A DNA stretch of 8,961 nucleotides, taken from IMG/VR virus record IMGVR_UViG_2548876934_000005; one strand, given 5' to 3'. Within the stretch, counting starts at the first letter, position 1; every line of letters begins with the position of its first letter. The position numbers and the translations under genes were made by a program. This stretch comes from a virus. Lineage: Duplodnaviria > Heunggongvirae > Uroviricota > Caudoviricetes. This document shows positions 5,172 through 6,973 of this stretch, piece after piece. The notes under the pieces were generated by a model. The model saw nothing but the letters and a program-made list of their open reading frames with translations. It did not search any database and was not told the origin of the DNA.

Positions 5172-6162
5172 ATTTTATCCTGTAATAAGTAGATCCTACA
5201 CTAATGAACTCATATATTCCTTGTGATGACAATGTAGTTATAAGTGTAGGCCCATTATAAATACCGATGGTCTGACTATTAAAATTTACTGATGAAAGAT
5301 CTAGTAAAACCCTGCTCCTAAGAAGCGTTCCATTTAATATAGTTAACTCTGGAAGCATTAGAGTTTTACCAGGTGATAAAGTTCCGCCAAATTTTATTAT
5401 ATTCCTAGAATCATCAGGCCATGGTGAAGCCGAGTTAATATCCGGTATTATTAAAATCTTACCTGAGTCACGATAGTCTGATGTTGAATAGAATGTTCCT
5501 TTACCTGAAGTATGTTCGTTATCATAAATGCCAGCAGGGGCATTTGTGAGAACAGGCTGATTAAATCTAGTACCTGCGAATCTTGCAATATCATGTGCAG
5601 AAGTAGACATCGTTAGTGTTGGTTGCCCATTACCATTAAACCCAATTGCGTTTTCGCCAATACTTGATCTAGAAAATTCATTTACATCAAAGAAACCAAT
5701 ATCAGTGAATCCACCTTCGCTCACTGATTCATGGCTGTTTCCGGTAAATGAAAAGTTAGTAAAACGAGACGAGCATTTAAATGCCGGACCTGATTCTATA
5801 GTGTGGTGCCTACCAAACTTAACACCGGTGAATGTAATGTTATCACCATTTACACAGTCCATAACATTGCTGATGTAACCAGAACCGGAGTTCCATCCAA
5901 TAGAACCGCCTACCCATGAAAAACCATCAACCTCCAGAATGTCAAATATCTTACCGCCTGTAAAAGCATAGTGAGTGCAGTTTGAGAACATACATGACTT
6001 CATTCTGCGGCCACGGAAACCATACTTAGTTCCGAACAGATGGATATTAACAAACTGTCCACCTTCTATTCCTTGAATGCTGCCACCACTCAAATCAGTA
6101 CCACCTACAAATTCTTTGGTCCCATCGACTATGATGTCATTCCACATCCCATATCTTCCCAT
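5170..6162 (-). CDS. Phage tail fibre/tailspike-like protein (beta-helix-like repeats), possibly a 5'-truncated remnant
   Basis: Minus-strand ORF ending at TAA (complement of 5170-5172). The body is rich in G/N/S/T with repeated short beta-strand-like blocks (GDNITFTGVKF, FTNFSFTGNSHESV) that resemble receptor-binding domains of tail fibres or tailspikes. The track ORF runs to 6396, but residues 1-78 are Ser-rich and look like an antisense artefact. Start placed at Met79 (6162); Met84 (6147) is an alternative. Confidence 0.45.
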   Translation of the reverse strand: MGRYGMWNDIIVDGTKEFVGGTDLSGGSIQGIEGGQFVNIHLFGTKYGFRGRRMKSCMFSNCTHYAFTGGKIFDILEVDGFSWVGGSIGWNSGSGYISNVMDCVNGDNITFTGVKFGRHHTIESGPAFKCSSRFTNFSFTGNSHESVSEGGFTDIGFFDVNEFSRSSIGENAIGFNGNGQPTLTMSTSAHDIARFAGTRFNQPVLTNAPAGIYDNEHTSGKGTFYSTSDYRDSGKILIIPDINSASPWPDDSRNIIKFGGTLSPGKTLMLPELTILNGTLLRSRVLLDLSSVNFNSQTIGIYNGPTLITTLSSQGIYEFISVGSTYYRIK

Positions 6163-6214
6163 TTGCAGAATTGAAGGAGCGCATCCTGAAAGCGGTTTCG
6201 ATGAAGATTTCCAA

Positions 6215-6973
6215 ATGGAACAGCAGGCCAATGCTGAATTCATCGCCGCAGCCAATCCGGCTACCGTGCTGGCACTACTGGATGAACGGGAAAGAAACCA
6301 GCAATACATCAAAAGCCGTGACCAGGAGAACGAGGATATTGCGCTAACGGTAGGGAAACTGCGTGTTGAGCTTGAGGAAGCAAAATCAAAACTCAACGAG
6401 CAGCGTGAGTATTACGAAGGTGTTATCTCGGATGGGGGTAAGCGTATTGCTGAACTGGAAAAACAATGCGCCGAATGGGAGCGAAAAGCATTAAGCAACT
6501 TTGAAGAGTGTGCTGCGATGGCTGAACGTATCGAAGAGATGCAGACAAAATCTGCGCCAGATTCGTTTGGCATCATCGGTGAAAATATTCGAACACAGGA
6601 CAATCGAATAACGTCAGATCCCATGTTTTGTGTGTATCAAAAGCGCGAAATCGTTGTTGATGCTGATTATGACCATGACCGGATTGTCTGGGTTGACGAA
6701 GATGGCAATGAAGCCAATAAACGCCATAGTCGTCGTCTCGAGCTACTTCATGAAAACTTTCGAGAGCCACCAGAAAAATGGCGGCGCGTTGCTGTGAAAG
6801 ATATTGATGAATTCGTTACCTGCTGTTTCACCGAACAGGGTTGTAAAGACTACCTGGCAGTCAATGGTCACAATCTTCGCTTGCCATTTATATATGTAAA
6901 AAGCGGTTTCAGGAACGCTGAATATATCGGCATAAGAAACTGGCTTGCTGGCATTCGCATCAAAGGAGAGTGA
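6215..6973 (+). CDS. Ea22-like prophage protein (central coiled-coil, C-terminal Cys-containing domain)
   Basis: The track ORF is 6077-6973; the first plausible ATG outside the overlap is 6215. The segment AEFIAAANPATVLALLDERE followed by heptad-like ELEEAKSKL...AELEKQCAEWERKAL is reminiscent of the lambdoid Ea22 family. No good Shine-Dalgarno precedes 6215, so the gene may itself be 5'-truncated. Confidence 0.5.
   Translation: MEQQANAEFIAAANPATVLALLDERERNQQYIKSRDQENEDIALTVGKLRVELEEAKSKLNEQREYYEGVISDGGKRIAELEKQCAEWERKALSNFEECAAMAERIEEMQTKSAPDSFGIIGENIRTQDNRITSDPMFCVYQKREIVVDADYDHDRIVWVDEDGNEANKRHSRRLELLHENFREPPEKWRRVAVKDIDEFVTCCFTEQGCKDYLAVNGHNLRLPFIYVKSGFRNAEYIGIRNWLAGIRIKGE

Follow-up and report, generated by a model that had tools for sequence, protein, structure and literature searches.

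A base-resolved junction between tailspike and ea22 gene remnants in a KplE1-family cryptic prophage of Escherichia coli

The stretch of DNA analysed here (the window; 8,961 nucleotides, IMG/VR record IMGVR_UViG_2548876934_000005) carries a cryptic prophage of ~7 kb, belonging to the KplE1 family and located in the argW tRNA-Arg gene of E. coli (Table 1). Within it, the interior of a tailspike gene meets the interior of an ea22 gene at a single homology breakpoint, and this junction was very probably made by one internal deletion (~32 kb) in a P22-like (Sf6/HK620-type) prophage of ~40 kb. An initial annotation had suspected a deletion scar here and had placed it in the ~320-bp overlap of two opposing ORFs; the ORF list confirms that a minus-strand ORF of 408 aa (5170–6396) and a plus-strand ORF of 298 aa (6077–6973) overlap by 320 bp at 6077–6396. 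The deletion junction stands, but its extent does not: the informative feature is the breakpoint at 6151–6153 rather than the ORF overlap, and neither the overlap nor the starts proposed at 6162 and 6215 mark its position.

Table 1. Features of the argW remnant and its junction, in window coordinates
Feature	Position	Strand	Evidence or remarks
argW tRNA-Arg(CCU), host integration target	1009–1083	+	ARAGORN
attL 16-nt core CTGCAGGGGACACCAT	1069–1084		Exact copy; sequence as published for KplE1 (PMC2951348)
intS, prophage integrase	1209–2402	+	Pfam Arm-DNA-bind_3, Phage_int_M, Phage_integrase; annotated intS in Z1323HEC0011
335-aa protein, cargo gene adjoining intS	2578–3585	+	ORF list
Acyltransferase_3 family protein	3983–5140	+	PF01757 at 4.5e-35; phrog_3333 O-acetyltransferase at 3.5e-72
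GC-rich hairpin terminator	5147–5166		Terminator scan; between convergent acyltransferase gene and tailspike remnant
Tailspike remnant, predicted pseudogene	5170–6153	-	Codons 463–789 and natural stop; Megablast end point, DNA alignment, BLASTP, phrog_22294
ea22-frame run-back into antisense tailspike	6077–6150	+	Back to stop at 6074–6076; chance-expected
Predicted deletion junction	6151–6153	none	3-bp microhomology ATA common to both parental sequences; three-way alignments
ea22 remnant, predicted pseudogene	6151–6973	+	Codons 44–316 and stop of 316-aa Ead/Ea22; first 128 bp deleted
Antisense open frame in ea22	6154–6411	-	ORF list; phrog_13760 at 1.4e-24; permutation P = 0.05
ea8.5 homologue, intact	7176–7457	+	PF20735 at 1.1e-48
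55-aa conserved early-left gene (orf55)	7546–7713	+	phrog_676 at 1.3e-38
torI, excisionase (recombination directionality factor)	7771–7971	+	Annotated torI (WP_001163428.1) in 100%-identical genome; phrog_66 excisionase
attR 16-nt core CTGCAGGGGACACCAT, right end of remnant	8045–8060		Exact copy; as published (PMC2951348)

Breakpoint and truncation of both genes

Base-level alignments place the switch of parent at the ATA of 6151–6153. When Megablast matches among 5,426 complete genomes were followed locus by locus, all tailspike matches ended at window positions 6149–6153 and all ea22 matches reaching the junction began at 6151. In the window, tailspike base 1387 on the minus strand abuts ea22 base 129 on the plus strand. 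Homology for both genes stops at the same 3 bp, so that one common point truncates them both. On the left, the end point is fixed only to within a few bases, because the closest tailspikes (94–97% identical) diverge from the window, including at 6147, where the window has T and they have G.

The minus-strand stump is the 3′ 984 bp, or back 41%, of a gene for a 789-aa P22-type tailspike from which the N-terminal 462 codons are deleted. Its product aligns only to residues 462/463–789 of 789-aa tailspikes at 95–97% identity (in BLASTP against full-length spikes, 97% to S1 and 95% to CM2010-0578/1), and phrog_22294 was matched at profile positions 431–778 of 779 only. The label of a tail-fibre-like protein was wrong in class: the protein is a P22-type tailspike and not a tail fibre. 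That it lacks an N-terminal virion-attachment region was correctly recognised: a full-length 789-aa homologue has the head-binding domain PF09008 (residues 1–113) followed by PF18668 (residues 143–188), both of which are absent here, and no Pfam match of any kind was obtained in the 408-aa ORF. A PDB sequence search with the full-length spike returned solved relatives for the N-terminal head-binding domain only, the PF09008 region matching the Sf6 and P22 spike structures. The cut itself lies within the receptor-binding part, which is not covered colinearly over its whole length (residues 463–789 are kept), and with residues 1–462 more than half of the protein is lost.

On the plus strand, the DNA from 6151 onward is 99.9% identical to ea22 of strain 162.2, and the product matches residues 44–316 of a 316-aa homologue at 99% (BLASTP 272/275). 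PF13935 is matched with 102.7 bits against a gathering cut-off of 27, but only at profile positions 41–139, whereas the match of the full-length homologue starts at position 2. The native start and residues 1–43 of 316 are gone, and inspection found no Shine–Dalgarno-like sequence before the in-frame starts at 6077, 6131, 6134 and 6215, in keeping with the earlier impression that this gene has no convincing ribosome-binding site or N-terminus.

A reading that takes both ORFs as intact genes, transcribed divergently and with truly overlapping 5′ ends, could point to frames that are open to natural stops and contain in-frame ATGs, and to their treatment by RefSeq/PGAP, which lists both as regular CDSs (357 and 280 aa) and not as pseudogenes (in the identical genome, WP_133303322.1 ‘hypothetical protein’ and WP_412176013.1 ‘ead/Ea22-like family protein’). 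This reading is scarcely credible, given that the full-length homologues, at 789 and 316 aa, are aligned only from residues 463 and 44, that no end-to-end homologue of remnant length was found for either stump, that the two tracts of DNA homology break off within the same 3 bp, and that each N-terminal extension is translated from the antisense strand of the other gene. None of the starts has a Shine–Dalgarno sequence, and predicted promoters do not exceed chance (6 sites in a promoter scan against 6.4 expected). With the stumps annotated as ordinary proteins, chimeric sequences therefore stand in protein databases as if real.

The complete genome Z1323HEC0011 has exactly this junction. The chimeric 357-aa product was found on eight contigs, whose loci match the window at 100% identity wherever DNA is shared, and the junction is inherited in a single E. 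coli clone represented by at least eight assemblies. Short-read assemblies are often broken by lambdoid prophage repeats, which could in principle join two prophage regions into a chimera. However, the same junction, base for base, is present in the closed 4.64-Mb chromosome of Z1323HEC0011 as well as in seven or more other independent assemblies; it is therefore no assembly artefact, and the probability of such a chimera is negligible. The 34-nt junction sequence had no exact matches in one-genome-per-species contigs, JGI metagenome contigs or IMG/VR viral contigs, which restricts the junction to a small clone of E. coli. The eight assemblies, identical in all other respects, are set apart by an IS421 insertion and three more small deletions around the scar, and together they provide a small natural time series of prophage and island erosion by microhomology-mediated deletion. 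One strain lacks torI and attR.

Missing interval and origin of the junction

On the intact argW prophage of CM2010-0578/1 (NZ_CP087564.1), the two end points fall at positions 7022 and 39149 of locus L006, 32,126 bp apart. The interval holds 49 whole annotated genes, among them those for ejection, head, packaging, lysis, late regulation, nin functions, replication, immunity (cI/cro/cII), kil and erf/abc recombination, and the prophage measures 40,562 bp from core to core compared with 6,976 bp in the remnant. These results agree with the initial proposal that a deletion had removed structural and replication genes and joined two gene interiors. The suggested comparison with intact KplE1 prophages led to relatives that are P22-like (Sf6/HK620-type) and carry a KplE1-family intS/torI module. 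In intact argW prophages the tailspike gene lies on the minus strand near intS and ea22 on the plus strand near torI; the order and strands of the stumps match this arrangement, so that a simple internal deletion would explain the junction.

The ancestor would have been a temperate P22-like phage with a KplE1-family intS/torI recombination module. A single deletion of ~32 kb at the ATA microhomology would then have joined the tailspike interior to that of ea22, removing the spike head-binding domain, the first half of the receptor-binding part and the first 43 ea22 codons. The event was probably a single-step, RecA-independent and microhomology-mediated (illegitimate) deletion in situ, and other deletions in the same clone likewise have microhomologies of 2–5 bp. 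We infer the single step, because no immediate ancestor was found: no intact prophage combined the same acyltransferase with the same tailspike and ea22 alleles. Loss of the lethal lytic functions, together with retention of the O-antigen acyltransferase cargo, may have let the deleted form persist.

Several other routes could have led to the same arrangement, such as successive smaller deletions, an IS-mediated adjacent deletion followed by IS loss, or recombination between two lambdoid genomes (tandem or superinfecting). The region is unstable in the clone, as the IS421 insertion and three additional deletions attest; the closest ea22 allele (99.9%) sits in a prophage at the lambda att site, which indicates mosaicism; and no single intact parent was found. 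Against these routes, the alignments show a direct join with neither an IS end or copy nor a target duplication, and with no foreign filler between the two parental sequences, which speaks against an IS-mediated deletion. In Z1323HEC0011, IS421 has inserted into the hairpin terminator, 1 kb from the junction; this simple insertion duplicated 12 bp (window positions 5151–5162) and postdates the junction. No intermediate form was present among the 5,426 complete genomes, and the stump orientations are exactly those of one intact argW prophage. We consider a multi-step or recombinational origin unlikely.

The single internal deletion is by far the preferred account, and makes this a clean, base-resolved case in which a lysogen sheds ~32 kb of lethal and virion functions while keeping its integrase, excisionase, att ends and surface-modifying cargo. 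The scar is ordinary prophage decay, and the remnant adds one more independently decayed member to the KplE1 family of argW prophages, with little wider weight.

Overlapping frames and the chimeric ORF

The minus-strand ORF is a chimera of an 81-aa ea22-antisense leader and 327 aa of tailspike C-terminus. Intact ea22 of strain 162.2 already has an antisense ORF of 87 aa, which ends 6 codons beyond the future junction point, and joining this frame in phase to the tailspike remnant gives the 408-aa ORF as well as the 357-aa PGAP call (5170–6243). In the proposed deletion, the tailspike frame would have met the pre-open antisense frame by luck. When ea22 was permuted over synonymous codons, the antisense frame remained open for at least 86 codons in 5% of trials, which we count as not significant (P = 0.05), and the 25-codon run-back of the ea22 frame was seen in 100% of trials. 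This run-back supplies adventitious ATGs at 6077, 6131 and 6134, of which 6131 is the PGAP start. Neither contributing frame exceeds chance, and the 320-bp overlap is an incidental by-product.

Both stumps are taken as pseudogenes; they have lost their own promoters (the late operon and PL) and start codons, and are probably not expressed. It is very unlikely that the ea22-antisense/tailspike fusion is transcribed and translated in the clone as a free-standing protein made of a spike receptor-binding fragment, a gene birth at the scar. Less probable again is expression of the chimeric ORF together with its retention as a novel stand-alone protein that binds or modifies O-antigen. The fusion preserves the reading frame, which stays open over 408 codons, its leader matches phrog_13760, a recognised ORF family that covers the ea22-antisense frame and is a called gene in some phage annotations, and the remnant lies beside O-antigen modification cargo in a module that moves together between unrelated prophages. 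Yet one fusion in three would be in frame by chance, the open antisense frame is not significant, promoter and ribosome-binding signals are missing, and the cut falls inside the receptor-binding part of a spike that has lost more than half of its length. All carriers are, moreover, identical in sequence, with no divergence that could distinguish constraint from neutral decay of the stumps. A related and likewise very unlikely reading takes the 87-aa antisense ORF of ea22 itself as a real overlapping gene of lambdoid phages.

Surviving module and its relatives

The duplicated 16-nt core CTGCAGGGGACACCAT borders the element, 6,976 bp from core to core, with intS next to attL and torI next to attR; argW lies directly upstream of intS, flanked by yfdC, all as in the KplE1 module. 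All parts required for TorI-driven excision are present. In the identical genome the PGAP start of intS is 1245, and that of the acyltransferase gene is 4067; from its domain matches, the acyltransferase is likely an O-antigen acetylase, and hence serotype-conversion cargo. The 335-aa gene is retained in the argW prophages of S1 and CM2010-0578/1 and also occurs in E2348/69, and its product had no family match in Pfam, PHROG or NCBIfam; NCBIfam likewise gave no match for either stump, orf55 or torI.

The core sequence of KplE1 is published, Sf6, HK620 and CUS-3 have been grouped with KplE1 by their recombination module (PMC2951348), and excision of KplE1 from K-12 upon TorI expression has been demonstrated (PMC2951348, PMC3509656). 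KplE1 (CPS-53) of K-12 and the remnant share the argW site, the same duplicated core, intS at attL and torI at attR, and both appear to have lost their immunity and lytic modules by internal deletion while keeping the recombination module and O-antigen-modifying cargo (PMC2951348, PMC3509656). At 7.0 kb the remnant is shorter than K-12 KplE1 (10.2 kb), it was cut at other points (tailspike codon 462 and ea22 codon 44), and a second integrase-bearing island lies in tandem at its attR. Its cargo, an acyltransferase and the 335-aa protein, differs too. K-12 KplE1 carries gtr-type genes (yfdGHI) in its place.

The complete P22-like prophage of CM2010-0578/1 (40.6 kb) has the same site, intS, 335-aa gene, torI/attR ends, gene order and strands as the remnant, and the C-terminal 328 aa of its 789-aa tailspike are 95% identical. 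It carries gtrA, gtrB and gtr-specific genes instead of the acyltransferase, and a DUF551/Eag variant replaces most of ea22, leaving only the N-terminal ea22-like 117 bp in common. The argW remnant of S1 (NZ_CP010226.1) shares intS, the 335-aa gene, the acyltransferase and the tailspike module with the window, at 99% DNA identity over window positions 2615–6153. It too has undergone an internal deletion, in which a partial acyltransferase-like gene was joined to a partial erf gene. In S1, however, the tailspike is full length and the deletion runs between the ejection-protein region and erf; the end points differ from those of the window, and the scars are therefore independent.

Two further candidates were rejected. 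In E2348/69, considered as an intact relative, the matching module lies beside guaA in another type of prophage, whose spike has 895 aa, and could not serve to map the deletion; CUVM3 has an argW prophage with a matching ea22–torI end, but a lambda-like tail and no tailspike, and was informative for the right side only.

No record in the phage collection spans both sides of the junction, and only ea22–ea8.5 matches lambda-like phages. Lambda positions 29103–30287 are 96% identical to window positions 6266–7728, covering the C-terminal part of ea22, ea8.5 and a small ORF, whereas ea22 is mosaic, with another allele in its N-terminal part, and torI/intS replace the int/xis module of lambda.

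Breakpoint between tailspike and ea22

Megablast of window 5100-7100 against 5,426 complete E. coli genomes split the query at one point: tailspike matches end at 6149-6153, ea22 matches reaching the junction begin at 6151, and just one genome covers both sides. At base level, the window tracks tailspike through ...CATTCCACA(T/G)CCCATA and ea22 from ATATCTTCCCATTTGCAG... onwards, and the parents share only ATA (6151-6153).

In strains S1 and CM2010-0578/1, the same locus, argW, encodes full-length tailspikes of 789 aa. BLASTP aligns the 408-aa window ORF only from its residue 79-81, to spike residues 460/462-789 (97% and 95% identity), and the tailspike remnant therefore comprises codons 463-789, 41% of the gene. 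The initial annotation had described a minus-strand protein without an N-terminal virion-attachment region, as is borne out here: the full-length spike has PF09008, a head-binding domain of the P22 type, at residues 1-113 (E = 5.5e-67) and Tail_spike_N at residues 143-188, its N-terminal domain matching solved Sf6 and P22 spike structures, and a domain scan found neither PF09008 nor Tail_spike_N in the 408-aa ORF. Because it has no head-binding domain, the stump would be unable to attach to a virion; the first half of the receptor-binding part also appears to be gone.

The product of the closest full-length ea22 (strain 162.2, 99.9% DNA identity) has 316 aa. Residues 44-316 survive in the window (272/275 identical), where the Pfam Ead_Ea22 match begins at profile position 41, versus position 2 in the full-length protein. 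The suspected lack of an N-terminus and of a convincing ribosome-binding site likewise holds, with residues 1-43 gone and no Shine-Dalgarno-like sequence seen on inspection before the in-frame starts that precede the retained ea22 stretch or fall just within it (6077, 6131, 6134 and 6215). Alignment with full-length homologues, proposed earlier as a check, thus places the truncations at tailspike codon 463 and ea22 codon 44. The products first delimited, 5170-6162 and 6215-6973, lie near the real stumps but are not identical to them: the first adds three antisense-ea22 codons and the second drops 21 retained ea22 codons. The ea22 stump would be without its start and PL, and both stumps would be best treated as pseudogenes.

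Interval lost from a KplE1-family prophage

Gene order (see table) was taken from the ORF map, domain and tRNA scans, and the gene calls in E. coli Z1323HEC0011, a complete genome with 100% identity to the window.

Features of the window in order
Feature	Position	Strand	Evidence
yfdC	1-933		
argW tRNA-Arg(CCU)	1009-1083		tRNA scan
intS	1209-2402		
335-aa protein, function unassigned	2578-3585		
Acyl_transf_3 protein, likely O-antigen acetylase	3983-5140		
Hairpin terminator	5147-5166		
'Tail-fibre-like' ORF	between terminator and Ea22-like ORF	-	
Ea22-like ORF	between 'tail-fibre-like' ORF and ea8.5		
ea8.5	7176-7457		
55-aa gene	7546-7713		
torI	7771-7971		
Second integrase, P4-type, 5' part	from 8155		

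The 16-nt CTGCAGGGGACACCAT, present at 1069-1084 (within the argW 3' end) and at 8045-8060, is the published core of the K-12 prophage KplE1/CPS-53 (PMC2951348). In the KplE1 family, intS and torI lie at opposite element ends, a module common to Sf6, HK620 and CUS-3 (PMC2951348; PMC3509656). The duplicated core and the intS and torI ends therefore place the scar mid-way in a KplE1-family remnant of 6,976 bp core to core. This remnant retains attL, attR, intS and torI and, by analogy with K-12 KplE1, may be excisable on torI expression (PMC2951348; PMC3509656). Just upstream of torI and ~300 bp from the attR core, 7736-7751 exactly repeats 16 nt of the argW T-arm (TTGCAGGTTCGATTCC, 1054-1069), and the 3' 31 nt of the tRNA thus occur in two separate phage-side pieces; the surrounding 7716-8062 shares 99.7% identity with the intact CM2010-0578/1 prophage.

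At argW, strain CM2010-0578/1 has what appears to be a complete P22-like prophage, 40,562 bp core to core. It starts with argW and intS, then the same 335-aa gene, gtrA/B/specific genes, tailspike (-), arc and ejection proteins, followed by head, portal, terminase, lysis, antiterminator, nin region, replication and cII, and then by cro, cI, kil, erf, anti-RecBCD, ea-region genes, torI, attR and dsdC. The junction can be placed on this prophage (locus L006) at both of its end points, window 6153 at L006 7022 and window 6151 at L006 39149, giving a missing interval of 32,126 bp (±3) with 49 whole annotated genes and the two gene fragments. Head, terminase and replication genes lie within it, and comparison with an intact prophage, as first suggested, supports in all essentials the reading of a loss of structural and replication genes that joined two gene interiors. 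Stump strands and order are exactly those of the intact element; a simple deletion suffices to explain the junction, with inversion or translocation unneeded.

At the joint, alignment shows three shared bases only, and neither an IS sequence nor a target duplication nor filler DNA. We infer that the resident prophage underwent an illegitimate deletion, RecA-independent and microhomology-mediated. A single step is the most parsimonious course but unproven, since the search turned up no immediate ancestor. Loss of kil, lysis and replication, with retention of serotype-modifying cargo and the recombination module, plausibly explains the persistence of the remnant, an explanation resting on the general cryptic-prophage literature.

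Overlapping reading frames

The opposite-strand overlap at 6077-6396 that had first suggested a scar is present in the ORF map: ORFs 5170-6396 (-, 408 aa) and 6077-6973 (+, 298 aa) share 320 bp. The informative feature is nonetheless the single breakpoint, not this overlap. The antisense strand of intact ea22 in strain 162.2 already holds an 87-aa ORF, MSFDFASSSS...ILQMGRYPTTSR, whose residues 1-81 are identical to the N-terminus of the 408-aa ORF and which belongs to ORF family phrog_13760 (E = 1.4e-24). It is serine-rich, lies opposite the coiled-coil part of ea22 (window 6154-6411 (-); 5983-6246 (-) in the strain 162.2 locus, L003) and is seen in intact ea22 genes. The deletion swapped its last six codons for tailspike codons 463-789 in phase, a one-in-three chance.

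When synonymous codons were permuted within ea22, 5.3% of 5,000 trials kept the antisense frame open over 86 codons or more, and in every permutation trial the ea22 frame again ran back 25 codons through antisense tailspike. Promoter-like sites in 5000-7200 showed no excess (6 versus 6.4 expected). With openness, run-back and promoter counts all near chance, the overlap is therefore a historical accident, with no evidence of overlapping genes; the phrog_13760 ORF, its openness marginally unusual (P = 0.05, synonymous permutation), is probably a recurrent mis-annotation. The sole unusual reading left, that the in-frame chimeric ORF is expressed, we regard as very improbable. PGAP nevertheless calls ordinary CDSs of 357 aa at 5170-6243 (-) and 280 aa at 6131-6973 (+), so that protein databases contain chimeric N-termini derived from antisense sequence. 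The corresponding RefSeq entries (L001, the Z1323HEC0011 locus, 8420-10223 = window 5170-6973) are WP_133303322.1 and WP_412176013.1, normal proteins rather than pseudogenes.

Clonal distribution and decayed relatives

Z1323HEC0011 has the identical junction in its closed chromosome; eight contigs encode exactly the chimeric 357-aa product, and two encode the 330-aa version. All six carrier loci retrieved are 100% identical to the window over shared DNA, and contig AIAL01000031.1 of GCA_000446225.2 matches across the full 8,961 bases. An exact scan for the 34-nt junction sequence found none in species-representative genomes, metagenome contigs or viral contigs. Taken together, these results make the junction a genuine marker, inherited within a single small E. 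coli clone.

Within this clone, Z1323HEC0011 carries IS421 (IS4 family, 1,337 bp; L001 7064-8400) ~1 kb from the junction, with a 12-bp duplication of window 5151-5162. It lies inside the hairpin of the terminator that separates the acyltransferase gene from the tailspike stump and is a later simple insertion; the window has the empty site. Other rearrangements in the clone are, like the scar, deletions at short homologies. GCA_047963145.1 has a further ~1.2-kb deletion (window 7598-8821, 5-bp GGTTA overlap) that takes the orf55 end, torI, the attR core and the second-integrase N-terminus, and would lock the remnant in place. The neighbouring island shows two different deletions with 2-3-bp overlaps.

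Among the well-known defective KplE1-family argW prophages the remnant is an independently derived newcomer, and the evidence suggests no new biology. Strain S1 differs in having its own internal scar (locus L002, 10909-11389), a partial acyltransferase-like gene joined to partial erf, the same prophage family having decayed there independently; K-12 KplE1 adds a third case (PMC2951348). In the S1 prophage, moreover, IS1 lies upstream of the 335-aa gene, and an ejection-protein gene has become a pseudogene.

The block at window 2578-6149 (335-aa secreted-looking protein, acyltransferase and tailspike C-terminal part) matches EPEC E2348/69 (L004 3352-8243) at 87-95% DNA identity, in an unrelated prophage adjoining guaA whose 895-aa spike has another N-terminus; Salmonella also has 895-aa spikes from the same 90%-identity protein cluster. 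These matches suggest a mobile cassette tying spike specificity to O-antigen modification.

The second island, with its P4-type integrase, is a tandem insertion into the copy of the argW 3' end at attR (window 8155-8961; clone loci L007-L011) and encodes an AlpA-like regulator, a rolling-circle Rep-like protein and a GapS6b / PIN-TPR-GreABC defence-type gene. The last 5 bases of the window (8957-8961) are already past another deletion junction within the second integrase. Island deletions differ between window/L008 and Z1323HEC0011 (L009 2804-5287 versus 3059-5270), their right ends only 17 bp apart.
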